Notes: a model not told the origin generated them from the sequence alone. Positions 27,021-41,383 are shown, numbered from the stretch's first letter. The stretch: 64,000 nt of DNA from an uncultured Eggerthellaceae bacterium (GCA_958452575.1 CAUDUM010000007.1:87127-151126), one strand, 5' to 3'. Numbers and translations are program-made.

Positions 27021-27911
27021 TTACGCCTTCCTGTCGGTAAGCTGGGCCTCGAAGCCGAGATGCTCGAGCGAGGTCAGCGCCTGCTGCTTGTGCACCTCGC
27101 GCAGCGGCGTGCGGCCGAACTTGGCGTTGTAGATGAAGAAGGTGAACAGGGCCGTGATAGCCAGGCCGGCAACCGCGAGCAGGAACGAGCCCAGGTGCAG
27201 CAACGCGGTGTCGACATGGCCGAGGAACAGGTCCAGGCCGACGTTGTACATGTTGTAGCCGCCGACGGTGATCATGACCGAGAAGCCCTCGCCGGAGAAG
27301 TTGGCAAGCGCCGTGGAGATGCCCGAGGGGGCCAGGATGCAGCCAACCATCCAGGCAGTGATCAGGATGTGCAGGTGATTGACCTTGGGCGTGATGCGCT
27401 GGACGACCATGTACAGGCACTGGAAGATCGCGGCGAGCAGGCCGCCCACGACGAACGCCCAGAAGAACAGCATGCCGCCCTCGGTCTTGGGCACCTCGAT
27501 GATGTGGTTGTTCAGGCCGGTGGCGCCGCAGGCGAAGCCGATGGCGATGCAGATGGCGGCGAACAGCACGTTGAACCACACGACGAACCACACGCAGTTC
27601 CACACGCACTTGCCGAACTTCTCGTTGGCGGTGGTCCAGGGGCCGACGGCCTTCATGCCCACGGCCATGGCGAAGCCGGAGAACGGAAGCAGTGCGCCGA
27701 AGTCGCCCCACTCCTCAACATGCTGGTACACGGCGAAGCCGCCCAGGATGCAGCCGATGACGCCCATGCTCACAAGCGTCGCACCGCCCGTGAAAAACTC
27801 CATGGGGGTGCCGGTCAGGGCGAACTGCCAGAACGACAGGATCGCCTGGGCGATAAGCGCGAACATACCGCCGATCAAAAATGCGTACACGATGCTTTTA
27901 GGCTGTTTCAT
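27021..27911 (-). CDS. tandem SpoVAC/SpoVAEb-family membrane protein
   Basis: First half: VYAFLIGGMFALIAQ...LLPFSGFAMAV, like SpoVAC. Second half: MLFFWAFVVGGLLAAIFQCLYMVVQRITP...GFSVMITVGGYNM, like SpoVAEb (compare MIFLWAFLVGGAICVVGQ recalled from Bacillus). Confidence 0.6.
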   Translation of the reverse strand: MKQPKSIVYAFLIGGMFALIAQAILSFWQFALTGTPMEFFTGGATLVSMGVIGCILGGFAVYQHVEEWGDFGALLPFSGFAMAVGMKAVGPWTTANEKFGKCVWNCVWFVVWFNVLFAAICIAIGFACGATGLNNHIIEVPKTEGGMLFFWAFVVGGLLAAIFQCLYMVVQRITPKVNHLHILITAWMVGCILAPSGISTALANFSGEGFSVMITVGGYNMYNVGLDLFLGHVDTALLHLGSFLLAVAGLAITALFTFFIYNAKFGRTPLREVHKQQALTSLEHLGFEAQLTDRKA

Positions 27912-28285: not shown

Positions 28286-29095
28286 CTAGATGCCGAAAGA
28301 CAGCCCGTCTGAGGCGGCGCGCACGCGGCCGTCGTATTGGCGCAGGAACTCCTCCAGCTCGCTCAGCGTGATGGGCTCGGCGTAGTGCATGCACAGATGC
28401 GTGAGGAAGATCGTGCCTGCCTCGAGCTCCAGGCCCTCTTCGATGGTCTCCTGGACGCTGTGATGCTGATCGGTGGGGCAGCTTTTCCAATAAGTGGCGT
28501 CCAGGGCAAGGAAGTCGACGCCGCGCACGCGCTCTGCGGTGGCCTCGGGCAGCTTGCCGGTATCCGAGGCGTAGAACAGGCGCTTGGCCGGCGTTTCGAT
28601 CAGGTACCCGTAGGTGCCGGGCGCATGGTGCACGGGCAGCGCGGTGTAGCGCACGTCATCGATCTCGATCGACTCGTAGGGCATGATCTCGTGCGTGTCC
28701 AGGCAGTACGTCATGTAGTGGTACTCGTGCGCGATGGTTTCGAGCGTGCCGGGGCTGGCATAGGTCGGCAAGGGGGATTTGGTGCGCAGCTGGACCATGT
28801 ACTCGAGCTCCTCCATGCCGCCGATGTGGTCGGAATGCCCGTGCGTCACCAGCAGCCGATCGATCGCGCGCACACCCTCGCGGTTGAGCTGGTGGCGCAC
28901 GTCGGGCGGCGTGTCGATGAGCGTCGTGGGCCCGCCTTCGCCGACCCTTCGCACCATCGCGCCGCAGTCGCCGCGCCGGGCCTGCGGATGCATGCGCGCC
29001 TCTTGGCAGGCGGGGCACTCGCAGAAAAACGCCGGCACGCCGCAACCGGCGCCGGTCCCCATGAACGTGAAAGTGTGGGTGAGGCTCTCTGCCAT
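28286..29095 (-). CDS. MBL-fold hydrolase, PhnP-like
   Basis: Start at MAESLTHTFTFMGTGAGCGVPAFFCECPACQEA, preceded by GAGGAAGGG. THGHSDHIGG metal motif. Confidence 0.7.
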   Translation of the reverse strand: MAESLTHTFTFMGTGAGCGVPAFFCECPACQEARMHPQARRGDCGAMVRRVGEGGPTTLIDTPPDVRHQLNREGVRAIDRLLVTHGHSDHIGGMEELEYMVQLRTKSPLPTYASPGTLETIAHEYHYMTYCLDTHEIMPYESIEIDDVRYTALPVHHAPGTYGYLIETPAKRLFYASDTGKLPEATAERVRGVDFLALDATYWKSCPTDQHHSVQETIEEGLELEAGTIFLTHLCMHYAEPITLSELEEFLRQYDGRVRAASDGLSFGI

Positions 29096-29309: not shown

Positions 29310-29672
29310 CCATATTCATGTGGAGGATGCGGGGCTTTGCGTACCGAGACGCGCGGGGGCGTGGCTCGGGAACGGGGAGACACATAGCGGAGGCGGTGCC
29401 CCGTCGCCGCGCGAATAATGCGACTCAAAAGGCTGGCCGCGGCGAGCGGTCGGCCTAATGCGGTATTCGGCGCACCTCGTACCGAAAGGTTTACCCGTTC
29501 ATACGATTTAAAGCCCCAAGAGCGATGTGCAAGTTCAGGGCGTTCTATAAACTTGCACCGTTTGCGGGCTGTCTTGAGTCATGGCGGCGGCCCATGCGGC
29601 ATGCGGCCGTGGAAAGACGGCAATGACAATGTAGGTAAAGGCAAGCATGACGAGTAGAAGAGGGGAAGGTAG

Positions 29673-32573
29673 ATGGCGGAGATTTCCAAGGAGTCGCACG
29701 GCCTGAAGGACCTGATGTGTCCCGATATCGTGTCGACCGAAGTCGATGTCAACGCTCCTGGCGTCGAGATGATCAAGTCGCTGTGCTATTTCTGCCACGC
29801 GAACTGCGGTGTTCTCGCATACGTCAAAGACGGTGACGTCATCAAGATCAAAGGCGATCCCGACTACAGCAACAAGGGAGGCCTGTGCTGCCGCGGCACC
29901 AGCGCGCTGCTGCACGTCAATCATCCCGCCCGCGTCAACCACGTGCTCAAGCGCGTCGGCGAGAAGGGCGAGGGCAAGTGGGAGCAGATCCCGTACGATC
30001 AGGGCATCCAGGAGGTCGCTGACCGCCTGAACCAGATCAAGGCCGAAAGCGGCGCCGAGGCTGTCGCCTCCGCCGGCGGCACCACGCGCACCGACGACTT
30101 CGCCCGTCGTCGTTTCCTGAACCTGTTCGGCACCCCGAACGGCTTCCACAACGCGCTGCTGTGCTGGATCCCCACGTTCATGACCGAGACCTGCGTGTGC
30201 GGTTGGTCCCCGTTCGAGACCGACCTGGGCGCTGCGAAGAGCCTGATCCTGTGGGGCATGAACCCCGGCGCCTCCTCGCTGCCCAGCATGCGCGGCTACA
30301 CCGACCTGCAGATGCAGACCGGCCTGAAGATCATCATGGTCGATCCTCGCTACTCCGAGACTGCCTCCAAGGCCGACCTGTGGCTGCCGCTGCGTCCCGG
30401 CTCCGACTCCGCTCTGGCGCTGGCGCTGCTGCACACCATCATCTTCGAGGGCCTGTACGACTGGGAGTTCGTCGAGCAGTGGTGCGACGGCTTCGAGGAG
30501 CTGCAGGATCGCATGGTCGACTACAGCCCCGAGTGGGCATCGACCATCACCTGGCTTGATCCCGAGCAGATCCGCGCCGCCGCGCGCCTGTACGCGATGA
30601 ACAAGCCCGGCTGCATCCAGTGGGGCTGCACGTGGGATCAGATGGGCCGCGCGTCCACCACGGTCGCCCATGCGCTCACGCTCATCCGCGCCATCTGCGG
30701 CAACCTGGACGTCCCCGGCGGCGACGGCATGCCCGGCCCGGCCATCAACTACCTCACCGACGAGGAGATGGAACTCAACGAGCGCCTGCCCGAGGAGCAG
30801 AAGGCCAAGCAGATCGGCTCCAACAAGTTCAAGCTGACCTCCTGGCCCGGCTACCAGCTGATCTCCGACAACGCCAAGCGCACGTGGGGCAAGACCCTGC
30901 CTGCCGAGTGGTTCTGCGAGGCCCACGGCCCCAGCGTCTTCAAGGCGATTCTCACCGGCGATCCGTACCAGGTGCGCGCGCTCATCGTGAACGCCACCAA
31001 CCCGGTGAACTCCTACGGCGACTCCAAGATGACGCTCGCCGCCCTTAAGAAGGTCGAGTTCCTGGTCACCGTCGAGTACTGGATCACCCCGACCGCGCTG
31101 CTGTCCGATTACGTGTTCCCGGCTGCCGGCGCGCTCGAGCGTCCGATCATCGTCACCCACTACGGCGCCACCGACTCCGTCATGGGCGGCCGCCGCGCCA
31201 TCCAGCCCAAGTACGACCGCCACGACGACTTCACCTTCTGGCGCAAGCTGGGCCTGGCCTGCGGTCAGTCCGAGGAGGATTGGCCTTGGGAGACCATCGA
31301 GGAGGCCTACTCCGCGATCATCGCGCCGCTGGGTCTGCCGATCTCCGGTTGGGACGAGTTCGTCGACAACTTCCGCATGTACTATCCGCCGCTGCACCAG
31401 AGCAAGTTCATCAACAACAACGGCTTCTGGACCCCGACGGGCAAGATCGAGTGCAACTCGACCATCATGCGCCAGCTGGGCTACGACGGCATGCCGTCCT
31501 ACACGGGCACTGCCGAGAACCCCGAGGACACGCCGGAGCTGCTGGAGGAGTACCCGCTGGTGCTCACCACGGGCGGCGGCTTCATGCCGTTCCATCACTC
31601 CGAGCACTTCAACATGCCCAACATCCGCTACCTGTATCCGGATCCGTACTTCTACATCAACCCGGAGAAGGCCGCCGAGCTCAACATCGTCCGCGGCGAC
31701 TGGTGCTGGATCGAGACCCGTCGCGGCCGCATCAAGATGCGCGCCAGCGTGGAGCCCATCGTCGATCCTCGCGTGATCATGTGCCCGCGCGGCTGGTGGT
31801 TCCCCGAGCGCGACGGTTCCGCCGACCTGGACAACCCGTTCGGCTGCCTGGAGTCCAACGTCAACACGCTGACCTCCGTCGATGACGAGGACTGCGATCC
31901 CATGGGCGGCTCCTGGTCCAACCGCGGCATGCTGTGCAAGGTCTACAAGTGCGGCGACTTCGACAACGTCTTCAAGCCTGAAGACGCCCAGTTCTCCATC
32001 CCCAGCTCCGCCAAGGAGCCCGGCATCCATGTGATGCCCAGCGAGCAGAAGCTGTGCAAGGAGAAGATCCCGTTCGAGATGCCCGAGTGCACCAAGGAAG
32101 TTCCCGAGGGCTACTACTGGGTGTGGCAGAACGACGGCATCTACCAGAAGGACACGCACTTCAAGCTGGACGACTCCGGCTGGCTGATTGACCCCAAGAC
32201 CAAGGCCTACATCGACCCGCACACCGGTTGGCGCTACGACGGCAACGAGCAGTGCCTGGTCGACGACGCCACGGGCAAGAAGTACACGATGGAGCGCGTC
32301 GAGATCACCTACGTCGCCGGCGTGCGCACCTATCCCGGCCAGGACGCGCCGTACGCGGTGCCCGAGCAGCTGACCTGGGATCAGGAGAAGGGCTACGCCG
32401 TCTTGGGCGACAAGCCGTACGTGTACGATCCCAACAGCGGCTGGATGCTCGATCCCGCTACGGGCGCCTACCATGACGCCTACTACGGCTGGCTGTACGA
32501 CGCCGCGGGCAACTGCCTGGTGGACGAGGCGACGGGCAACCGTTACGACATGTCGTACCAGCCCCTTCAGTAA
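29673..32573 (+). CDS. molybdopterin (bis-PGD) oxidoreductase catalytic subunit, signal-less, with a C-terminal extension of about 200 aa
   Basis: N-terminal CxxCxxxC...C [4Fe-4S] motif (CYFCHANC...CCRG), FGTPN...LLCW region, and molybdopterin and dinucleotide-binding domain-like blocks (GDWCWIETRRGRI). A TAG stop immediately precedes the ATG. Confidence 0.85.
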   Translation: MAEISKESHGLKDLMCPDIVSTEVDVNAPGVEMIKSLCYFCHANCGVLAYVKDGDVIKIKGDPDYSNKGGLCCRGTSALLHVNHPARVNHVLKRVGEKGEGKWEQIPYDQGIQEVADRLNQIKAESGAEAVASAGGTTRTDDFARRRFLNLFGTPNGFHNALLCWIPTFMTETCVCGWSPFETDLGAAKSLILWGMNPGASSLPSMRGYTDLQMQTGLKIIMVDPRYSETASKADLWLPLRPGSDSALALALLHTIIFEGLYDWEFVEQWCDGFEELQDRMVDYSPEWASTITWLDPEQIRAAARLYAMNKPGCIQWGCTWDQMGRASTTVAHALTLIRAICGNLDVPGGDGMPGPAINYLTDEEMELNERLPEEQKAKQIGSNKFKLTSWPGYQLISDNAKRTWGKTLPAEWFCEAHGPSVFKAILTGDPYQVRALIVNATNPVNSYGDSKMTLAALKKVEFLVTVEYWITPTALLSDYVFPAAGALERPIIVTHYGATDSVMGGRRAIQPKYDRHDDFTFWRKLGLACGQSEEDWPWETIEEAYSAIIAPLGLPISGWDEFVDNFRMYYPPLHQSKFINNNGFWTPTGKIECNSTIMRQLGYDGMPSYTGTAENPEDTPELLEEYPLVLTTGGGFMPFHHSEHFNMPNIRYLYPDPYFYINPEKAAELNIVRGDWCWIETRRGRIKMRASVEPIVDPRVIMCPRGWWFPERDGSADLDNPFGCLESNVNTLTSVDDEDCDPMGGSWSNRGMLCKVYKCGDFDNVFKPEDAQFSIPSSAKEPGIHVMPSEQKLCKEKIPFEMPECTKEVPEGYYWVWQNDGIYQKDTHFKLDDSGWLIDPKTKAYIDPHTGWRYDGNEQCLVDDATGKKYTMERVEITYVAGVRTYPGQDAPYAVPEQLTWDQEKGYAVLGDKPYVYDPNSGWMLDPATGAYHDAYYGWLYDAAGNCLVDEATGNRYDMSYQPLQ

Positions 32574-32603
32574 GTAAGCATCGAGTAGGAGAAAGGATAG
32601 GAA

Positions 32604-33182
32604 ATGACTCGTTACGTTATGGTCATCGACCAGCGTCGTTGCATCGGCTGCCACTCCTGCACGGTTGCTTGCCGTGTGTGGAACAAGCTCCCGCTTGACA
32701 TCATTTACAACCCGGTCGTCTCCGAGGGCGTTCAGGGCACCTGGCCCAACGTCCATCGCAACTGGACGCCGCTTTTGTGCATGCACTGCGAGAACCCCGA
32801 GTGCGTGCCCTGCTGCCCCTCCGGCGCAAGCCAGCAGGACGACGACGGCACCGTTTGGGTGGATCCCAAGAAGTGCCTGTCCTGCAAGGTGTGCGTGAAC
32901 GCGTGCCCCTACGGCATGCGCGACGCCTCCCACCTGGAGAACCGCATGCATCGCTTCGTGCGCAAGTGCACGTTCTGCCGTGACAAGCGCCAGCTCGATC
33001 CGGATGCCCAGCCCTACTGCGTGGAGACCTGCCACCAGAAGGCCCGTATCTTCGGCGATCTGGACGATCCGAACAGCGAAGTGTCCAAGCTCATCGGCTC
33101 GGTCAAGACCGACCGCATCTTCACCGAGTTCGGCACCGATCCTCAGATCTACTACATTCCGTGTTTGGGAGGTCAGGCATAA
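32604..33182 (+). CDS. 4x[4Fe-4S] ferredoxin-type electron-transfer subunit (DmsB/PsrB/NrfC-like)
   Basis: Four Cys groups: CIGCHSCTVAC, CMHCENPECVPCCP, CLSCKVCVNACP and CTFC...CVETC. Confidence 0.85.
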   Translation: MTRYVMVIDQRRCIGCHSCTVACRVWNKLPLDIIYNPVVSEGVQGTWPNVHRNWTPLLCMHCENPECVPCCPSGASQQDDDGTVWVDPKKCLSCKVCVNACPYGMRDASHLENRMHRFVRKCTFCRDKRQLDPDAQPYCVETCHQKARIFGDLDDPNSEVSKLIGSVKTDRIFTEFGTDPQIYYIPCLGGQA

Positions 33183-34162
33183 TGAAACATCATTACTGGG
33201 AACCGCCTATCGCCCTGTACCTGTTCCTAGGCGGTCTGGCTGGCGGCATTCTGTTCCTGTCTGCCATTTTCAACAGCTTCGTGATCCCGGGCTATGGCGA
33301 GATCTTCGCCTTCCCGGTGCTCATCGCGCTGATCTGCGTGGCTATCGGCTGCGTGTTCCTGATCATCGACCTGGGCCAGCCCGGCGTGTTCTGGCGCGTG
33401 TGGACCACGGCGACCTCCATCATCAAGTGGGGCGCCACCTTCCTGGTCATCGCCGCCGTGTTCGCGCTGCTGTACCTGCTCGCGTTCCTCGATCAGGCGT
33501 GGCCGATCTTCGGCGGGCTTTCGCAGTTCCTGCTGCCTGCCGCTGACTTCTTCCTGATCGTCGCGGGCTTCTTCGGCCTGTGCATCATGATGTACACCGG
33601 CATCATGCTGTCGACCCTGAAGGCGCATGCGTTCTGGGCCACCCCTGCTCTGCCCGTGCTGTTCACGATCTCCGCTATCTCCACCGGCTGCGCCGCCATC
33701 GTGCTGTCCATCGGCGGTTGGCCGGCTCAGATCACGCTCGAGAGCCTGCTGGCTGCAGCGCTCGTGCTGGAGATCCTGCACATCGTCGACATCGTGCTGG
33801 TCATCGCCGAGCTCATCGTGCTGCTGACCATGGTCCTGTCCTTCGCGGGCGCCGGCAACGTGACCGCCAAGAAGGCCGCGATGCGCTGGATCAAGGGCAA
33901 TTACGCCCTGCTGTTCTGGGTGGGCATGGTCTTCCTGGGCCTGCTCGTCCCGCTGATGATGTACATCGGCGGCGGCCACTCCGCTGCTGCTCAGATCGTG
34001 GCTCCCGTGCTGGTTCTGTGCGGCGGCTGCCTGCTGCGCTTCATGGTCGTCAACACCGACGATCGTGCGGACATCCCGGGCGAGATCCGCTACTACAACC
34101 GTGTTGCCAAGCCTGACGCCGAGTTCGTCAAGAAGTGGGAATACGGCAAGAACCTCTTCTAA
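33182..34162 (+). CDS. NrfD/PsrC-type polytopic membrane anchor
   Basis: ATG overlaps the preceding stop (TAATG). MKHHYWEPPIALYLFLGGLAGG N-terminus, about 8 TM. Confidence 0.75.
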   Translation: MKHHYWEPPIALYLFLGGLAGGILFLSAIFNSFVIPGYGEIFAFPVLIALICVAIGCVFLIIDLGQPGVFWRVWTTATSIIKWGATFLVIAAVFALLYLLAFLDQAWPIFGGLSQFLLPAADFFLIVAGFFGLCIMMYTGIMLSTLKAHAFWATPALPVLFTISAISTGCAAIVLSIGGWPAQITLESLLAAALVLEILHIVDIVLVIAELIVLLTMVLSFAGAGNVTAKKAAMRWIKGNYALLFWVGMVFLGLLVPLMMYIGGGHSAAAQIVAPVLVLCGGCLLRFMVVNTDDRADIPGEIRYYNRVAKPDAEFVKKWEYGKNLF

Positions 34163-34166
34163 TTTC

Positions 34167-34253
34167 GTTCCGCCGGCCTGACGGCCGGCGGAACTGGCCG
34201 CCGCTGCGACCGCCTGAGGCACCTCAGGCGCTCTCGCTGACGTTACGAACGAC
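34167..34253 (+). repeat. intergenic repeat family 1, copy 2 (short form)
   Basis: Hairpin GTTCCGCCGGCC-TGAC-GGCCGGCGGAAC, GCCGCCGCTGC, and 3' anchor CTCGCTGACGTTACGAACGAC (34233-34253). Confidence 0.75.
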
Positions 34254-34403: not shown

Positions 34404-35360
34404 ATGTCTGGATACGTGTACGACGACGCGCTGACAGGGAGCCGAGTCACCTGCGGCTATCCAGAACTTTCGGCGTGGGTGGAGCCCGCGCGCGCATCCG
34501 AGGGGGATGCCGCTCCGGTCAAGTCGTTGTATTTCCCGGGGTGCTCGTTCATCAACTACTCGCTGCCGCTTGTCCAGGCGGTGTACGATCTGCTAAAGGG
34601 CGCCGGTCGCGTGGATGGCGTGTCGCTGGTGTGCTGCGGCAAGATCCTGCAGTACGAGCCCAATGGCAAGGAGGTTCGCGCGGCGCACGAAGCGCAGCTG
34701 CGCGAGCACATCCTGAGCACCGGAGTCGAGCGCATCATTACGGCTTGCCCTAATTGCGTGAAGGCGCTGCGCGCCTTGCTGGCGGCCGATGAGCGCACCG
34801 CCGACGTTGAGGTCGTGCCGCTGCCGGTGGAGTTGGCGGAGATGGGCTACCGCATCGATGCCGAGGTGGCTCGCAAGATGGTCGCCACCGCCGTGCCGGA
34901 GTCCGACGCCGCGGCCGGTGGGCTGCCTCATTTCGCCCCGCACGATTCCTGTCCCGATCGCGATACGGGCGAGTTCGCTGACGGCGTTCGCGCTTTGCTT
35001 CCCGAAGGAACGATCCGCGAGGCCGAGCACAACCGACACCGGTCGTTCTGCTGCGGCAGCCTGCTGCGCGCGGCGGGCAAACCGGAGCGCGCATCGGAGC
35101 AGTCGCGCAAGCATGGCCAAGAGGCGGTCGCCGCACAGGCGGATGCCATCGTGACCGCCTGCATGAGCTGCACGTTCCTGCTGTCAAAGGAGCAGCGTGA
35201 CGTTCCGGTGTTCCACTATCTTGAACTGCTGTACGACTGGCGCATCGATTGGGACAACACCCCGCCTTATATGACGCTGCGTTTCCTGTTCGACGAGCCC
35301 GCGCCTTCGGAGGAGTCGCGCCGGACGTTCGTCGGCCTGGATTCCGCCAACGCTGAGTAG
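34404..35360 (+). CDS. (Fe-S) oxidoreductase with two CCG (Cys-rich) domains, HdrB/LutA/GlpC-like
   Basis: PGCSF...VCCGKIL...TACPNC and HDSCPD...SFCCGSL...TACMSC. ATG at 34404 after AAAAGGGGG. Confidence 0.75.
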   Translation: MSGYVYDDALTGSRVTCGYPELSAWVEPARASEGDAAPVKSLYFPGCSFINYSLPLVQAVYDLLKGAGRVDGVSLVCCGKILQYEPNGKEVRAAHEAQLREHILSTGVERIITACPNCVKALRALLAADERTADVEVVPLPVELAEMGYRIDAEVARKMVATAVPESDAAAGGLPHFAPHDSCPDRDTGEFADGVRALLPEGTIREAEHNRHRSFCCGSLLRAAGKPERASEQSRKHGQEAVAAQADAIVTACMSCTFLLSKEQRDVPVFHYLELLYDWRIDWDNTPPYMTLRFLFDEPAPSEESRRTFVGLDSANAE

Positions 35361-35381
35361 AATCGACGGAGCCTCGCGACA

Positions 35382-37619
35382 ATGCAAGAGATCAAACCTA
35401 CGAACTGCCACTACTGCGGATACTGCTGCGCCTTTTTGGCGACGGTGGAGGACGGCCGCGTGATCGACCTTCAGCCTGATCCCACGCGCTATCCGTACGA
35501 CGATCGCATCCTTGCCGGATGCCGTCGCTGGCGCATGAACCTGGCTGCCCTCGACGGGGACGACCGCGTCAACCACCCGCTGCGTCGCGTTGGCGAGCGC
35601 GGCGCCAATCAGTGGGAACGTGTGAGCTGGGATGAGGCGCTCGACGATATCGCGATGCGTTTGCGCGAGCTGGCGGATCAGCATGGCCCCGAAACGCTTG
35701 CCAGCGCCATCGGCGGGCCGCACGCATCGTTTTGGCCGCTCCATCGCTTCATGAACCTGTTCGGCAGCCCCAACAACATGGGTATCGGCCAGATCTGCTG
35801 GAACCCGCGCATCTGGATGGATGCGCTTACGTTCGGATGGACGGTCGAGGCCGACATCACACCCGGTTTGACGGAGTGCCTGTTCATATGGGGCACCAAT
35901 CCCGCGCAATCGGACAACTCGGCGTTCTGGCGCGCCATCATCCAATTCTCCAAGACCGAGGCGTCGCTCGTCGTCATCGACCCGCGCCGCACGCAGGTCG
36001 CGGCGCTGGCGGATATCTGGCTGCCGGTCCGCCCCGGCACCGATTGCACGCTCGCACTGGCCTTCATGCACGTGATCATCGAGGAGGGGTTGGTCGACCG
36101 GGCGTTCCTCGATGAGTGGTGCCATGGGTTCGACGAGCTCGCCGATCACGTGAAGCCCTACACTCCGGCGCGCGCGGCTCGCGAGTGCGGCGTTTCCGAG
36201 GACGACATCGTGCGCGCGGCGCGTCTGTTCGGTGGCGCGCGGGCGGCAGCGCTCGTGTCGGGACGCGGCATCGACCAGGTGGGCGTGAACGTTGCGCCCA
36301 CGCACCGCGCGATCTGCTGTTTGCGTGCCATCACGGGCAACGTCGACAAGCAGGGCGCCTGCGTTTTGGCGGAAGCGAGCGACTTCATCCCCGAGGTCGA
36401 TATGGAGATGACCGACGCGCTGGCTCCCGAGCATCGCGCCCGCTGTCTCAATACGCAGCGCACGCCGCTGCAGTGTTATGAGGGGTACGCGAAGGCGCGC
36501 GAGCTCACCGAGAAGCTGGGGCGCCGTCTGCCGGAGCGCTACCTGACCTCCGCTGCACCCGATCTGGTGCTTCGCGCGATGGAGACGGGCGAGCCGTATC
36601 CGGTGCGCGCGCTCATCGTCAACGCCACCAACCCGCTTATCACTTACGCCGACACCCACCGCGTCTTCAAGGCGTTCATGGGGCTTGACCTTATCGTGGT
36701 GCTCGACTACTACATGACCCCCACGGCGAGCATCGCCGACTATGTTCTGCCGATCGCCGGCGCCATCGAACGCCCGATCTTCCAGGTGCACGGCGGCGTG
36801 GCGAACAACGGCTACGGCGGTCCCGCGGCGGTCGAGCCGTATTACGAACGTCGCACCGATTACGAGGTGTTCCGCGAGTTGGGCCTGCGCCTGGGGCAGG
36901 CCGATGCCTGGCCTCAGGAGACGCTGGAGGATGCGTTTGCCGCGCAGCTGGCCCCTACGGGGATGGATTGGGAAACCTATTGCCAGATCGGCCTGTACTA
37001 TCAACCGCCCGCGTACGAGAAGCACCTGATCACCGGACCGGACGGCGTACCTCGGGGCTTCGCCACCACCACGGGCAAGATCGAGCTTGCCAGCGAGTTT
37101 CTGCCGCAAGTCGGCGGGACGCGGCTCCCCGAGCCGGGTGGGCATCTCTCACTGTGCTCGCCGGAGCTGATCGAGCGCGTCCAGGCGGAAGGCGGAGCGC
37201 ATCTGCGCATGATCACGGGTTCGCGCAAGCAGCCGTACAACGCGTCGATGTACTTCAACAATCCCGAGTTCCGCGCCAAATCGCCTATGCCGGTCGCCGA
37301 GGTCAGCGAGGCGACGGCAGCGCGTCTGGGTCTGGCGGCGGGCGACACGGTGGAGATCGCCACCGACCAGGGCAGCGCGCGGTTCGAGCTGGCGACGGCG
37401 CGGATGCGCGATGATCTGGTCAACGTCGATTACGGTTGGTGGCATCCCGAATGGGAGCCGGGCGCGCCCGATTTCGGCGGCATGTGGGAGTCCAATGTGA
37501 ACTGTCTGACCACCTGCGAGCTGGCTGAGCCGATGATCGGCACCTGGAGCTACAATGACATCGATTGCGTCATCAAGCGCGTCGAAGAGCCGATCAGCTG
37601 GCAGAAAGATCGCCAGTAG
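35382..37619 (+). CDS. second molybdopterin (bis-PGD) oxidoreductase, signal-less, 745 aa
   Basis: CHYCGYCC...C N-terminal Fe-S motif, FGSPNNMGIGQICW, WGTNPAQS, and C-terminal GDTVEIATDQGSARF beta-barrel domain. Confidence 0.85.
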   Translation: MQEIKPTNCHYCGYCCAFLATVEDGRVIDLQPDPTRYPYDDRILAGCRRWRMNLAALDGDDRVNHPLRRVGERGANQWERVSWDEALDDIAMRLRELADQHGPETLASAIGGPHASFWPLHRFMNLFGSPNNMGIGQICWNPRIWMDALTFGWTVEADITPGLTECLFIWGTNPAQSDNSAFWRAIIQFSKTEASLVVIDPRRTQVAALADIWLPVRPGTDCTLALAFMHVIIEEGLVDRAFLDEWCHGFDELADHVKPYTPARAARECGVSEDDIVRAARLFGGARAAALVSGRGIDQVGVNVAPTHRAICCLRAITGNVDKQGACVLAEASDFIPEVDMEMTDALAPEHRARCLNTQRTPLQCYEGYAKARELTEKLGRRLPERYLTSAAPDLVLRAMETGEPYPVRALIVNATNPLITYADTHRVFKAFMGLDLIVVLDYYMTPTASIADYVLPIAGAIERPIFQVHGGVANNGYGGPAAVEPYYERRTDYEVFRELGLRLGQADAWPQETLEDAFAAQLAPTGMDWETYCQIGLYYQPPAYEKHLITGPDGVPRGFATTTGKIELASEFLPQVGGTRLPEPGGHLSLCSPELIERVQAEGGAHLRMITGSRKQPYNASMYFNNPEFRAKSPMPVAEVSEATAARLGLAAGDTVEIATDQGSARFELATARMRDDLVNVDYGWWHPEWEPGAPDFGGMWESNVNCLTTCELAEPMIGTWSYNDIDCVIKRVEEPISWQKDRQ

Positions 37620-37699
37620 AACTGTTAAGAGACACCGGCGACGAACGCGCGGCGCCCGTGCGGGGTCGCCGCGCCGATAGACGAGGAGGAACAAGCCGT

Positions 37700-38578
37700 A
37701 TGGCGGAAAAGAAGCAAGCGTTGCTGCTGTTCAGCAAGCCCCCGGTTTCGGGCAGGGTCAAGACCCGCCTGACCATCGAACATGGCGGGTTCATGACGCC
37801 CGACGAGGCGGCCGATTTCTACAAGCGCTGCCTGTACGATGTGTCCGAGCTGTGCATGCATTCGCTCATCGAGATGCAGCGCGCCAATGACGCCGCGGTC
37901 GCGGCGGATCCGTCCGTGGACAAGATCACCTACGATTTCTTCGTGTCGACGCCCGCTGCCGACATCGACATCATGAAGGCGACCTACGACGAGATCGGCC
38001 CATGGCCCATGGAGATCCACTACCTCACCGACAAGGGTGCCACGTTCGACGATCACTTCGATTACGCTTTCAAGCAGATCTTCGACGAGGGCTACGAGCA
38101 CATCGTATCGGTCGGCGGCGACATCCCCACGCTGCCCAAGTCCCACATCAAGCAGGCGTTCCAGTGGCTCGACTACTTCCAGGCCTGCGGCACGCCGGGC
38201 TTCGTGCAGGCGCCGTGCCAGGAATGCGGCACGTCGCTGGTGGGTTTCAGCTACAACACGCCCATCAACCATCAGGGCATCTATTACAACATGGACGGCC
38301 GTCCCGCGCTCGACGGCTACGTCGAGAAGCTGAAGGCGGCCAACATCCCGTCTGCGTACTTCTCGCCGGTTGCCGATATCGACGAGCGTACCGACCTGGC
38401 CCACGCCATCTCCTGCATGCGCGCGATCGCCGAAGCGGGCAAGTACCAAAACGACGTGTTTGTTCCCCAGCGCGTGCTCGATTGGGTCGACTGGTATGGC
38501 ATCACCGTGTCCACCCCTCCCAACGAGGAGCACGACCCGCGCCAGTACCTCGACGAGGTTGAGGACGAGGAAGAGTAG
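37700..38578 (+). CDS. DUF2064-like (TIGR04282-type) nucleotide-diphospho-sugar-transferase-fold protein
   Basis: ALLLFSKPPVSGRVKTRL N-terminal motif. RBS GAGGAGGA. Confidence 0.6.
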   Translation: MAEKKQALLLFSKPPVSGRVKTRLTIEHGGFMTPDEAADFYKRCLYDVSELCMHSLIEMQRANDAAVAADPSVDKITYDFFVSTPAADIDIMKATYDEIGPWPMEIHYLTDKGATFDDHFDYAFKQIFDEGYEHIVSVGGDIPTLPKSHIKQAFQWLDYFQACGTPGFVQAPCQECGTSLVGFSYNTPINHQGIYYNMDGRPALDGYVEKLKAANIPSAYFSPVADIDERTDLAHAISCMRAIAEAGKYQNDVFVPQRVLDWVDWYGITVSTPPNEEHDPRQYLDEVEDEEE

Positions 38579-38741: not shown

Positions 38742-40142
38742 GTGAGAAAAGAGATTGTCTTGGCTATTCCAAACAACAACGATTCCGTGAAGGTGGCGCA
38801 CGTTGCCCAGGAGGGCAGCGCGCCGCGCGTTGCCGGGCATCGGCACCTGCACAACACGATCGGCCTGTGCCCGGAGTGCCTGCGCGAGCTGAAGGCCGAC
38901 GTCTACGCCGACGACGAGGGCACCGTGTGGATGGAACGCACCTGCCCCGACCACGGGCCGCTCACCACGCGCGTGTGGCCCGACGCAGACCATTACCAGT
39001 GGCTGCTGTCCGAGGCGTTCCCCAAGACCAAGCCGCAAAACACCATCCCGGCCGGCGCGCCGTGCCCCTTCGGCTGCGGCACGTGCTCGCGCCACGAGCG
39101 TCGCGGCACGCTGCTCGAGATCGAAGTGACCAAAAGCTGCAATCTGCATTGCCCCGTGTGTTTCATGAGCTCCGAGAACGGCGATGACGATCCCACGATG
39201 GATGAGATCGACGCCATGTACGACGTCATCGCCAACGCTGTGGGCACCGACGGCGCCGTTCAGCTGACCGGCGGCGAGCCGACCTGCCGCAAGGATCTGC
39301 CCGAGATCATCTACCATGGCCGCGAGAAGGGCTTCTGGGGCATCGAGGTGAACACGAACGGCCTGGTCATCGCCTCGCGTCCGGGATATCTGGAGGATCT
39401 GGTGGGCGCGGGCCTGACCGGCGTGTACCTGTCGTTCGACGGGCTGACCGGCGATGTGTACGAAGGTACGTGCGGGCGCGACATCCTCGATATCAAGCTG
39501 CGCGTCATCGAGCGCTGCCGCGAGGTGGGCATCCAGTGCGTGCTGTCGGTCGCCGTGGTCGCGGGTCTCAACGACGGTCAGCTGGGCGATCTTCTGCGCT
39601 TCAGCTTGGAGAATTCCGATGTGGTCGCCGGTCTGGCGCTGCAGCCCGCGTTCGTGTCCGGCCGCTTCGAGGCCGAGCGCGCGATGCAGCTGACGGCGGG
39701 CGATGTCATCTTCAAGCTGGCCGAGCAGTCCGACGGGCTCATCGAGCCGCGCGACATCTGGCCGCTCGGCTGCTCCAACCCGTTGTGCGACACCGGCGTG
39801 TTTTTGGTGCGCACCGACGAGGCCGTGCATAAGAGCGGGTTTGTTCCGGCGACGCAGCTGCTCACGCCCGAGGAATACCGCGAAGGCTACAGTCCCGACA
39901 GTCCCCAGGGCTCGGTGTTCCTGGACATCCTGTCCAAACGCGGCGTCAAGGTGAAGGACGGTTTGTCCGTCATCATCATGAACTACATGGACGCCTGGTC
40001 GATGGACGTGCAACGCCTGCGCGAGTGTTCGATGATGGTGACCGTCCCCGACGGCCGCGCCATCCCGTTCTGCTCGTACCACTTGACCGACGCCGACGGC
40101 CGCCGCGTGTATCCGCCCTGGTGCAAGGAAGAGCTGCGTTAA
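38742..40142 (+). CDS. radical SAM enzyme with N-terminal zinc ribbon (COG1964-like architecture)
   Basis: GLCPECL...TCPDHG zinc ribbon, CNLHCPVC (Cx3Cx2C) and a C-terminal IMNYMDAWSMD...PFCSYH block. The exact start codon is uncertain because there is no clear SD. Confidence 0.8.
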   Translation: MRKEIVLAIPNNNDSVKVAHVAQEGSAPRVAGHRHLHNTIGLCPECLRELKADVYADDEGTVWMERTCPDHGPLTTRVWPDADHYQWLLSEAFPKTKPQNTIPAGAPCPFGCGTCSRHERRGTLLEIEVTKSCNLHCPVCFMSSENGDDDPTMDEIDAMYDVIANAVGTDGAVQLTGGEPTCRKDLPEIIYHGREKGFWGIEVNTNGLVIASRPGYLEDLVGAGLTGVYLSFDGLTGDVYEGTCGRDILDIKLRVIERCREVGIQCVLSVAVVAGLNDGQLGDLLRFSLENSDVVAGLALQPAFVSGRFEAERAMQLTAGDVIFKLAEQSDGLIEPRDIWPLGCSNPLCDTGVFLVRTDEAVHKSGFVPATQLLTPEEYREGYSPDSPQGSVFLDILSKRGVKVKDGLSVIIMNYMDAWSMDVQRLRECSMMVTVPDGRAIPFCSYHLTDADGRRVYPPWCKEELR

Positions 40143-40151
40143 TCGTGCGGG

Positions 40152-40271
40152 CGCGGAGCGGAAGGGGCGGGGCTCCGTGCTCAAACAGGTCCTGAGCTCG
40201 CACGAAACGCCCACTGGGCGTTTCGGCTCGTGCGGATACTGCGCGCGGAGCCCCGCCCCTTCCGCTCCGCG
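40152..40271. repeat. palindromic element family 2, copy A
   Basis: 25-bp perfect outer stem (40152-40176 with 40247-40271) enclosing a 70-nt core that is shared, inverted, with 60918-60993. Confidence 0.85.
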
Positions 40272-40408
40272 GCGAGATTATCTTGCTCAGGGACGGGGGT
40301 GTTCGCGCTTTGCGCGAATTGCGGAGGGCCGATTTTGCGCGTCTCTTTCTTATAAGATATGGTCTACTATGCATGAAGCAAGAAGAGTGACCAAGACGAG
40401 AGGTTTAC

Positions 40409-41383
40409 ATGGCTGACTATAGGATTCTTCATGACGACGCCCGTTGCGTGAAGTGCGGGTTGTGCGTGGCGTTTTGTCCATGCAACGTGTTGGAGATGAA
40501 CGACGAGGGGTTCCCGTACGGGGCGCATCCCGATCAGTGCGTCGGGTGCCAGACATGCTCGGGCAACTGCCCTCAGCGCGCGCTGACGATCGAGGCTACG
40601 GGCGACGCCGTTTATGATCCGTTCGCGGACGAGCCGCGCGCCGAGCCTCTGGACAAGGATCGCCGCGCCGAGCTGGCGGAATACCAGCGCGTCATCATGG
40701 ACAAGCTCGGCCTGCGCTGGCAGCCGGTTGCCGTGAGCCTGGTCGAGGCGGACGAGCTGCTGCCCGATGTGCCGATGCCTCCGGAGAACCTGCGCTTCTG
40801 CCAGGCTATGATGGCGGCCCGCCGCGGTGCGAGCATCCTCATGCCTCCCAACAAGCATTCCTGCCCCGATGGCACGTCCATCTTCGGCATGACCGGCGTT
40901 CCCGAGAAGCTTGCCACTGGCGAGATCTACGTGCTGTTCCACAAGCTCGACACCGCCGAAGCGGCTGCGCAGATGGTTGCCGAGCGCCCCACGCTGCCGC
41001 CGCATAGCCGCCGCGCCACCTACGTTGCGCCGCTGAACAAGACGGTGCGTGAGCCGGAGGTGATCGTGTTCACCGGCACGCCCGAGCAGATGATGTGGCT
41101 GTGCATGTCGATGAGCTACTACACCGGCCATCGCTTCGACTTCCATGCGTCGGGCTACAACTCCATGTGCGTGGAGGCAGTGCTCATCCCGATGCGCGAC
41201 AACGAGCCCAACATCACGTTCGGCTGCTACGGCTGCCGCGCGGCAAGCGACATCGGCGAGGACATGATGTTCATGGGCATTCCCACCGACAAGCTGCCCA
41301 CCGTGGTGCGCGGTCTGACCGAGCTTGCGAAAAAGGCGATCCCGCACTCCCGCATGAAGATCTACGTCCCCCCGATCATGTAG
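40409..41383 (+). CDS. 2x[4Fe-4S] ferredoxin domain fused to a DUF169-like domain
   Basis: CVKCGLCVAFCP and CVGCQTCSGNCP, followed by about 260 aa with LRFCQAMMAARRG...HSCPDG (DUF169/COG2043-like). Confidence 0.65.
   Translation: MADYRILHDDARCVKCGLCVAFCPCNVLEMNDEGFPYGAHPDQCVGCQTCSGNCPQRALTIEATGDAVYDPFADEPRAEPLDKDRRAELAEYQRVIMDKLGLRWQPVAVSLVEADELLPDVPMPPENLRFCQAMMAARRGASILMPPNKHSCPDGTSIFGMTGVPEKLATGEIYVLFHKLDTAEAAAQMVAERPTLPPHSRRATYVAPLNKTVREPEVIVFTGTPEQMMWLCMSMSYYTGHRFDFHASGYNSMCVEAVLIPMRDNEPNITFGCYGCRAASDIGEDMMFMGIPTDKLPTVVRGLTELAKKAIPHSRMKIYVPPIM

Follow-up and report, generated by a model that had tools for sequence, protein, structure and literature searches.

The 64,000-nucleotide stretch of DNA analyzed here (the window; 64% G+C, one strand, with all positions counted 5′ to 3′ along its whole length) comes from an uncultured Eggerthellaceae bacterium and contains three co-directional genes encoding a putative molybdenum (Mo) or tungsten (W) enzyme, an iron–sulfur (Fe–S) partner and an NrfD-type membrane anchor (Table 1). 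The analysis was computational, and its assignments are predictions throughout. Our results support the view that this trio represents an acetylene-hydratase-like enzyme that lacks a twin-arginine translocation (Tat) or Sec leader and would sit on an inverted NrfD anchor. The catalytic reading frame, whose translation begins MAEISKESHGLKDLMCPDIVSTE, is preceded by a Shine–Dalgarno sequence and by an in-frame TAG directly ahead of its ATG at 29673. This agrees with a preliminary description of the locus and excludes an upstream in-frame leader. The ATG of the anchor gene at 33182 overlaps the TAA of the Fe–S gene (TAATG; ggcaTAATGaaa), the arrangement that the same description had taken as translational coupling; an identical 326-residue anchor product has been called on public contigs. 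The gene order catalytic–Fe–S–NrfD was kept in about 48 Eggerthellaceae loci (L004–L051) and three further contigs, that is, in essentially every Eggerthellaceae locus recovered, and it recurred in four Desulfitobacterium/Peptococcaceae loci at 57–58% identity.

Table 1 Features of the three-gene locus, followed by those of its neighborhood
Feature	Position	Strand	Basis
Shine–Dalgarno sequence GAGGGGAAGG (29660–29669), then in-frame TAG (29670–29672)	29660–29672	+	Direct sequence reading
Catalytic subunit (MoA), 966 amino acids, predicted Mo/W-bis(pyranopterin guanine dinucleotide) (bisPGD) enzyme of the acetylene-hydratase-like clade, no Tat or Sec leader	29673–32573	+	Pfam, PDB match, orthologues
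Predicted FS0 [4Fe–4S] motif, Cys38-x2-Cys41-x3-Cys45 ... Cys72	29784–29888	+	Alignment to 2e7z
Codon of Cys164, predicted Mo/W ligand	30162–30164	+	Alignment with ligand Cys of acetylene hydratase and Thermus PsrA
C-terminal extension, residues 761–966: linker of ~45 residues and Tyr/Asp/Gly-rich β-hairpin repeats (OCRE-like)	31953–32570	+	
Fe–S subunit, four-cluster ferredoxin, 192 amino acids, no leader	32604–33182	+	Pfam, NCBIfam
NrfD/PsrC-type membrane anchor, 326 amino acids, 8 transmembrane helices, both termini predicted cytoplasmic	33182–34162	+	Pfam, AlphaFold2 (AF2), Lys+Arg (K+R) bias
Perfect 12-bp G+C-rich hairpin, 5 nucleotides 3′ of the anchor stop, no U tract	34167–34194	+	RNA fold, −33.2 kcal/mol, z −4.5 vs shuffles
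Metallo-β-lactamase (MBL)-fold metallohydrolase (PhnP/GPMC-MBL-like, below curated cut-offs), divergent	28286–29095	−	Pfam, NCBIfam
CCG-domain protein	34404–35360	+	Pfam
Second acetylene-hydratase-like Mo enzyme, 745 amino acids, no leader	35382–37619	+	phmmer, 2.3e-134 to catalytic subunit

The catalytic subunit comprised the Pfam domains Molybdop_Fe4S4, Molybdopterin and Molydop_binding, followed by OCRE. Its best match in the PDB was acetylene hydratase (2e7z; E 3.4e-108, residues 37–760 against 5–727), followed by PsrA (2vpw; E 1e-56) and then by formate dehydrogenases, with NarG as a distant match only (E about 1e-7). The term PsrABC-like, which had been applied to the locus at the outset, thus remains appropriate for the three-subunit architecture but not for the catalytic subunit, which is closest to acetylene hydratase and not to PsrA. 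For the catalytic and Fe–S subunits no NCBIfam model reached its cut-off, and the database names of the proteins read only 'molybdopterin-dependent oxidoreductase'. The catalytic protein was 99% identical to that on a contig of the chicken-gut metagenome-assembled genome 'Candidatus Aphodovivens avicola' (Eggerthellaceae) and 76–96% identical to the products of Gordonibacter, Adlercreutzia, Raoultibacter, Ellagibacter, Enterorhabdus and Paraeggerthella genes.

Relative to acetylene hydratase, the FS0 cysteines and the Lys/Arg beside the fourth of them were kept, and the earlier proposal of a Cys at the Mo-ligand position was corroborated by Cys164 (located in FGTPNGFHNALLCW, ...NALLCW), which aligned with the metal-ligand Cys of both acetylene hydratase and PsrA. 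Conservation of the ligand Cys and of the FS0 cluster, together with the top rank of acetylene hydratase among solved structures along the whole catalytic domain, would also fit a non-redox hydratase to whose catalysis the Fe–S and NrfD genes are irrelevant. We give such a hydratase very little credence: the catalytic Asp13 of acetylene hydratase, which adjoins the second FS0 Cys, is replaced by His42 (CYFCHANC vs CQSCDINC), and acetylene hydratase is a monomer that acts without partners, whereas here the genes for a ferredoxin and an NrfD protein always follow.

The Fe–S subunit matched Pfam Fer4_11 and resembled the NrfC, ArrB, TtrB and DsrO models of NCBIfam. It contained 16 Cys arranged in four cluster motifs. 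Its N-terminus (MTRYVMVIDQRRCIGCHSC) starts straight at the first Cys cluster, just as the preliminary description had stated; the 'RR' found there belongs to a conserved motif ahead of that cluster and does not constitute a leader.

A Tat or Sec leader was absent from all three subunits of the trio. No hydrophobic segment was present in the soluble proteins, in which the maximum 19-residue Kyte–Doolittle value reached 1.21 (catalytic) and 0.75 (Fe–S). Likewise, none of the 120 catalytic orthologues (62–100% identity), whose N-termini ahead of the FS0 motif ranged from 17 to about 55 residues, carried an RR leader. The same was true of the Firmicutes orthologues, with catalytic subunits starting MKK(V/I)DLEQEG... 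and Fe–S subunits starting MARYA...RRC. For comparison, we used the NCBIfam profiles of Tat-bearing relatives, namely PhsA, DmsA and ArrA for the catalytic subunit and NrfC, TtrB and DsrO for the Fe–S subunit. Alignments of both soluble subunits began at profile positions of about 37–45 (Fe–S about 37–42), past the leader of these relatives, and therefore the missing segment is exactly the leader. An open reading frame of 79 amino acids (29418–29657) was considered as a hidden leader and rejected, as it lies in another frame, lacks an RR motif with a hydrophobic stretch and is uncalled in public contigs. The initial claim that no subunit carries an export signal was hence extended to the orthologues of two phyla. 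As judged from these N-termini, the missing leader is a trait of the family and not the result of a sequencing error or frameshift, a concern that the preliminary description itself had raised.

To place the finding in the context of the clade, we searched 1.84 billion cluster representatives. We inspected the 96 closest 50%-cluster representatives whose N-termini were intact: 91 were leaderless and five carried textbook RR motifs, the latter demonstrating that the method of leader detection works. Within the acetylene-hydratase-like clade, a missing Tat leader is thus the rule, and the recruitment of an NrfD anchor is the unusual part. The evolutionary oddity is a normally soluble enzyme type attached to an NrfD anchor of inverted orientation, as predicted below, rather than a loss of Tat. 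The hitch-hiker partner that had been considered as a way out of the cytoplasm was not encountered either: the 7-kb flanks of 48 loci contained no conserved Tat-bearing neighbor, while the same scan did recognize a typical leader in one locus (L012), where an unrelated gene carries it.

Because the absence of a leader alone is compatible with hitch-hiker export, we examined the charges of the anchor. The protein matched Pfam NrfD (E 1e-32), and its AF2 model (predicted local distance difference test score, pLDDT, 80) consisted of eight long helices. Foldseek retrieved ActC of alternative complex III with a template modeling (TM) score of 0.63–0.69 and PsrC (2vpw_C) with a TM score of 0.72 normalized to PsrC. 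A profile of 20 orthologues aligned with Escherichia coli NrfD helix for helix (hhalign; 99.2% probability, residues 2–293 against 10–313). Sequence searches of the PDB with the single sequence, the 20-sequence profile or E. coli NrfD found no NrfD-like chain; for the mapping of residues to PsrC we thus relied on the similarity of the folds and on the alignment with E. coli NrfD. Loop and helix boundaries were set with explicit helix definitions guided by the AF2 model; an automatic helix finder was dropped, as it split helix 6, blurred the loop boundaries and yielded misleadingly weak biases.

The face that bears the termini (N-tail, loops 2–3, 4–5 and 6–7, and C-tail) carried 15 Lys and Arg residues, the opposite face none. 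The chance that 15 random charges distributed over 99 + 47 loop residues would all fall on one face is about 0.003. The bias was shared by all 119 anchors of the family, Firmicutes included, with mean K+R counts of 14.1 vs 0.5. As controls, we selected anchors with Tat-bearing partners, taken from a scan of metagenomes that started from Tat-bearing relatives, plus that of E. coli. Counted on the same faces, these gave 5:13 for E. coli NrfD, in which case the Tat leader resides on the partner NrfC, and 6:11, 5:18 and 3:19 for the metagenome loci L074, L088 and L119. The catalytic leaders of the three metagenome control loci read GIKRRDFLKATA..., RISRRRFLKLAA... and RIGRRTFVKASA... No Tat-positive control was present within the window, and E. 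coli DmsC was not used, since it is a member of another Pfam family and contains hardly any charges. A tblastn search against plasmids for more anchors or for SoeC returned only enterobacterial nrfD and three weak matches. The metagenome loci L074, L088, L119 and L128 encode Tat-bearing acetylene-hydratase-like Mo enzymes with Fe–S and NrfD partners of their own; three of these four anchors were of a 10-helix form with extra K/R-rich outer tails. Going by these controls, both anchor orientations appear to occur inside the acetylene-hydratase-like clade.

The K/R-rich face was also the conserved one, with a column conservation of 0.76 vs 0.49. Near-invariant columns amounted to 23 of 99 on this face and 1 of 47 on the other, and insertions and deletions were concentrated in the loops of the K/R-poor face. 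The K/R-rich face includes an invariant STLKAHAFWATPALP loop and an N-terminal HHYW motif, and the invariant polar residues His3/His4, Lys147 and His149 lie in termini-side loops, where the quinone sites of PsrC are located (PMC8076601). In PsrC, both termini, PsrAB and the quinone site are all found at the outer (P) side of the membrane (Calisto & Pereira, PMC8076601). Since the anchor of the trio carries its positive charges on the face that corresponds to the docking and quinone face of PsrC, this face is predicted to be cytoplasmic. The charge bias thus predicts that the anchor is inserted opposite to PsrC and NrfD, with its termini inside.

This observation bears on the assumption of an outward orientation, as in PsrABC or the catechol dehydroxylases of Eggerthella lenta, with export by hitch-hiking or by an unrecognized signal. 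Most NrfD-anchored Mo enzymes do face outward, and hitch-hiker export exists in principle. However, the charge bias is the reverse of that in all four anchors with Tat-bearing partners, so that docking in an outward-facing complex would have to take place on the face that is variable and rich in insertions. With leaders absent from both soluble subunits in 120 orthologues and in a second phylum, and with no conserved Tat-bearing gene within 7 kb in 48 loci, we regard outward orientation as quite improbable.

The role of the anchor was the subject of a further alternative, according to which the catalytic and Fe–S subunits form a soluble cytoplasmic enzyme, while the NrfD protein is a tether, a quinone-less ion-translocating module (ActF-like) or part of another system. 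Most members of the acetylene-hydratase-like clade are indeed soluble and leaderless (PMC7028382), and Gordonibacter Dodh has been proposed to be a soluble cytoplasmic enzyme. Moreover, distant Desulfosarcina/Desulfococcus loci contained Mo, Fe–S and CCG genes and no NrfD gene, and quinone binding by the anchor is itself a prediction. On the other hand, the anchor start overlaps the Fe–S stop, synteny is strict across two phyla, the Fe–S protein is a full four-cluster ferredoxin of the PsrB/NrfC type, which commonly serves as the wire to NrfD anchors, and the anchor retains its invariant polar residues where PsrC has its quinone sites. A soluble enzyme with an unconnected anchor is, in our judgment, unlikely.

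An additional feature of the catalytic subunit was its C-terminal tail, which matched Pfam OCRE (PF17780) in two stretches with 58.6 bits (cut-off 24.7). This domain is familiar from RNA-binding proteins of eukaryotes. The AF2 model of the tail displayed short strands only, with pLDDT > 90 over tail residues 50–210. Foldseek found no significant fold match in the PDB; a weak match to the OCRE domain of RBM5 (5mf9; E 0.33, probability 0.72, 48 columns) was on a par with those to repeats of the Rhs, glucansucrase and choline-binding types. The tail varied from 126 to 939 amino acids among the orthologues and was absent in those from Firmicutes. The sequences recovered in homologue searches with the tail were all C-terminal fragments of enzymes from this one family, so that no other domain architecture came to light, and a literature search found no paper on OCRE in a bacterial molybdoenzyme.

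Taken together, the conserved gene order, the TAATG overlap, the absence of leaders, the homology of the anchor and its charge bias support an inward-facing trio. We estimate a probability of roughly 0.75 that the three proteins assemble into a membrane-bound heterotrimer, a Mo/W-bisPGD oxidoreductase with its soluble part in the cytoplasm; the cytoplasm-facing, membrane-bound Mo enzyme foreseen in the preliminary description is thereby supported. Several points speak against this interpretation. The positive-inside rule is statistical in nature, and the orientation argument presumes that the Fe–S subunit of the trio uses the docking face known from PsrC and ActC. The residue-level mapping of the anchor to PsrC was made with no NrfD-like chain detectable by sequence in the PDB, and the neighborhood contained no substrate, regulator or transporter gene that would point to a function. 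Finally, the variable-length tail with its β-hairpins resembles in style extracellular repeats (choline-binding, glucan-binding, Rhs/YD) and is, through these weak matches, reminiscent of surface proteins. It is the sole observation that pulls, if weakly, against a cytoplasmic location and towards an outward-facing complex.

We infer that the three proteins form one complex and that the anchor binds quinone. In this complex, the catalytic subunit, with its Cys164-ligated metal and FS0 cluster, and the ferredoxin would fold, receive their cofactors in the cytoplasm and remain there. Both would then dock on the eight-helix anchor, whose termini would lie inside and whose docking and quinone face would look into the cytoplasm. 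Electrons could pass from the menaquinone pool via a quinone site near the inner face to the four [4Fe–4S] clusters, to FS0 and on to Mo/W. As to the direction of electron flow, we lean slightly towards a menaquinol-driven reduction of a cytoplasmic small molecule, possibly a dehydroxylation or O-atom transfer, given that reductases are the nearest characterized redox relatives; the reverse, a substrate:menaquinone dehydrogenase like SoeABC, is in our view only slightly less likely. If its quinone site lies at the inner face, the complex would by itself add no redox half-loop; it would depend instead on hydrogenases or formate dehydrogenases that face outward, or on protons moving through the NrfD protein.

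The hairpin downstream of the anchor stop likely marks the end of a three-gene transcript, and the trio therefore looks like a transcription unit of its own. It was missed by a simple terminator scan due to the absence of a T run and is probably a factor-independent terminator of a kind common in high-G+C Actinobacteria. On the opposite strand, an open reading frame of 1166 amino acids (29535–33035, −) overlaps the catalytic gene; none of the public contigs has it called, and a high-G+C artefact is its simplest explanation. Beyond the hairpin, the CCG-domain protein and the second Mo enzyme are followed by a DUF2064/TIGR04282-like protein, which completes a downstream block (34404–38578). This block was syntenic with the trio across Eggerthellaceae, and the second Mo enzyme was also kept in the Desulfitobacterium (Firmicutes) loci. 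Upstream, the MBL-fold hydrolase was present in nearly all loci, the distant Desulfosarcina loci included. The constant company of the second Mo enzyme hints that it may form a two-enzyme pathway with the trio. The trio family belongs to the conserved core of Eggerthellaceae and is not a strain-specific accessory reductase. One could go further and propose that the trio is a second, independently evolved upside-down NrfD lineage, in which a Mo enzyme of a normally soluble, acetylene-hydratase-like type became connected to the menaquinone pool from the cytoplasmic side, and which, with the CCG protein, the second Mo enzyme and the MBL-fold hydrolase, would form a core intracellular quinone-mediated redox pathway of Eggerthellaceae and Desulfitobacterium, the OCRE-like tail serving as a cytoplasmic module for protein recruitment. 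We put this forward as a speculation that is, on balance, doubtful.

Two further observations concern the outer parts of the region. At 38760–41383, a radical SAM protein nearest to the TrsS (seleno)protein model (348 bits, cut-off 490) is followed by a protein with DUF169 and ferredoxin domains; the literature on this TrsS-like neighbor offered nothing useful for function. At 27021–27911 (−), a 296-residue protein displayed a SpoVAC/SpoVAEB Pfam match, a family of spore dipicolinate channels, in what is apparently a Coriobacteriia genome.

Research on Eggerthellaceae has dealt with their rich repertoire of outward-facing Mo and flavin reductases, which transform drugs, dietary compounds and host metabolites. 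Surveys of such reductases pick enzymes by their signal peptides (bioRxiv 10.1101/2022.12.26.521950) and would therefore miss a leaderless Mo enzyme wired to the membrane. If the topology proposed here is true, the trio would connect a reaction in the cytoplasm to the menaquinone pool as part of the core equipment of these bacteria. It would also provide a second case, after SoeABC, for the study of inverted NrfD anchors with their inner quinone site and its consequences for proton coupling. A literature search found no paper describing the Eggerthellaceae enzyme family to which the trio belongs.

Comparison with known systems helps to define the position of the trio. With PsrABC of Thermus thermophilus (2vpw–2vpz) it shares the three-subunit architecture, FS0, a Cys-ligated Mo, the four-cluster ferredoxin and the anchor fold. 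However, PsrA bears a Tat leader, PsrAB reside outside and the termini of PsrC point outward, whereas the trio is leaderless and its termini are predicted to lie inside. Similarly, with respect to the outward Psr, Phs and Nrf complexes in general, a Mo-bisPGD subunit with FS0, a four-cluster ferredoxin and a cofactor-less anchor of 8–10 helices are present, while the Tat leader and, by prediction, the outward termini and docking face are not. Acetylene hydratase of Pelobacter acetylenicus (2e7z), a cytoplasmic enzyme, resembles the catalytic subunit in its leaderless catalytic domain with FS0 and ligand Cys. Unlike this soluble, non-redox monomer with its Asp13, the trio has His42, ferredoxin and NrfD partners and a tail of 200 amino acids. 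NarGHI is a cytoplasm-facing, quinol-linked complex iron–sulfur molybdoenzyme that involves no Tat export, and its anchor NarI is a di-haem cytochrome b; the anchor of the trio, by contrast, is a cofactor-less NrfD protein.

The catechol dehydroxylases of gut bacteria come from the same bacterial family and likewise combine an acetylene-hydratase-like Mo enzyme with a 4Fe–4S partner. Dadh, Cadh and Hcdh of E. lenta have a Tat leader, an Fe–S subunit and an anchor and face outward, while Dodh of Gordonibacter has no Tat leader, a small Fe–S protein and no anchor and is soluble (PMC7028382). Set apart by these published descriptions, the trio represents a third combination, with an anchor but no Tat leader, and in contrast to the dehydroxylases it is conserved across genera rather than strain-variable.

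The closest parallel in topology is SoeABC, a cytoplasm-facing heterotrimer of Mo, Fe–S and NrfD subunits whose soluble subunits have no signal peptides (PMC8076601, PMC6335251). Its anchor SoeC has been predicted to insert upside down and to have its quinone site close to the inner side of the membrane (PMC8076601). Like SoeABC of Allochromatium vinosum, Aquifex aeolicus and Ruegeria pomeroyi, the trio combines a Mo-bisPGD subunit, an Fe–S subunit and an eight-helix anchor with leaderless A and B subunits; the inverted orientation of the anchor is shared as well, here by charge bias only. Differences were nevertheless apparent. Compared with SoeABC by description, the catalytic subunit is acetylene-hydratase-like and not identifiable as SoeA, and its nearest solved relative, acetylene hydratase, argues against SoeA orthology. 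Furthermore, the trio has an extra OCRE-like tail, and its hosts are gut Coriobacteriia and Firmicutes, not sulfur oxidizers. The topology had initially been called unusual; it is indeed rare, but a precedent exists in SoeABC (PMC8076601, PMC6335251). The inward-facing NrfD layout is thus already known, and the arrangement of the trio is a variant of the SoeABC type rather than a new principle.

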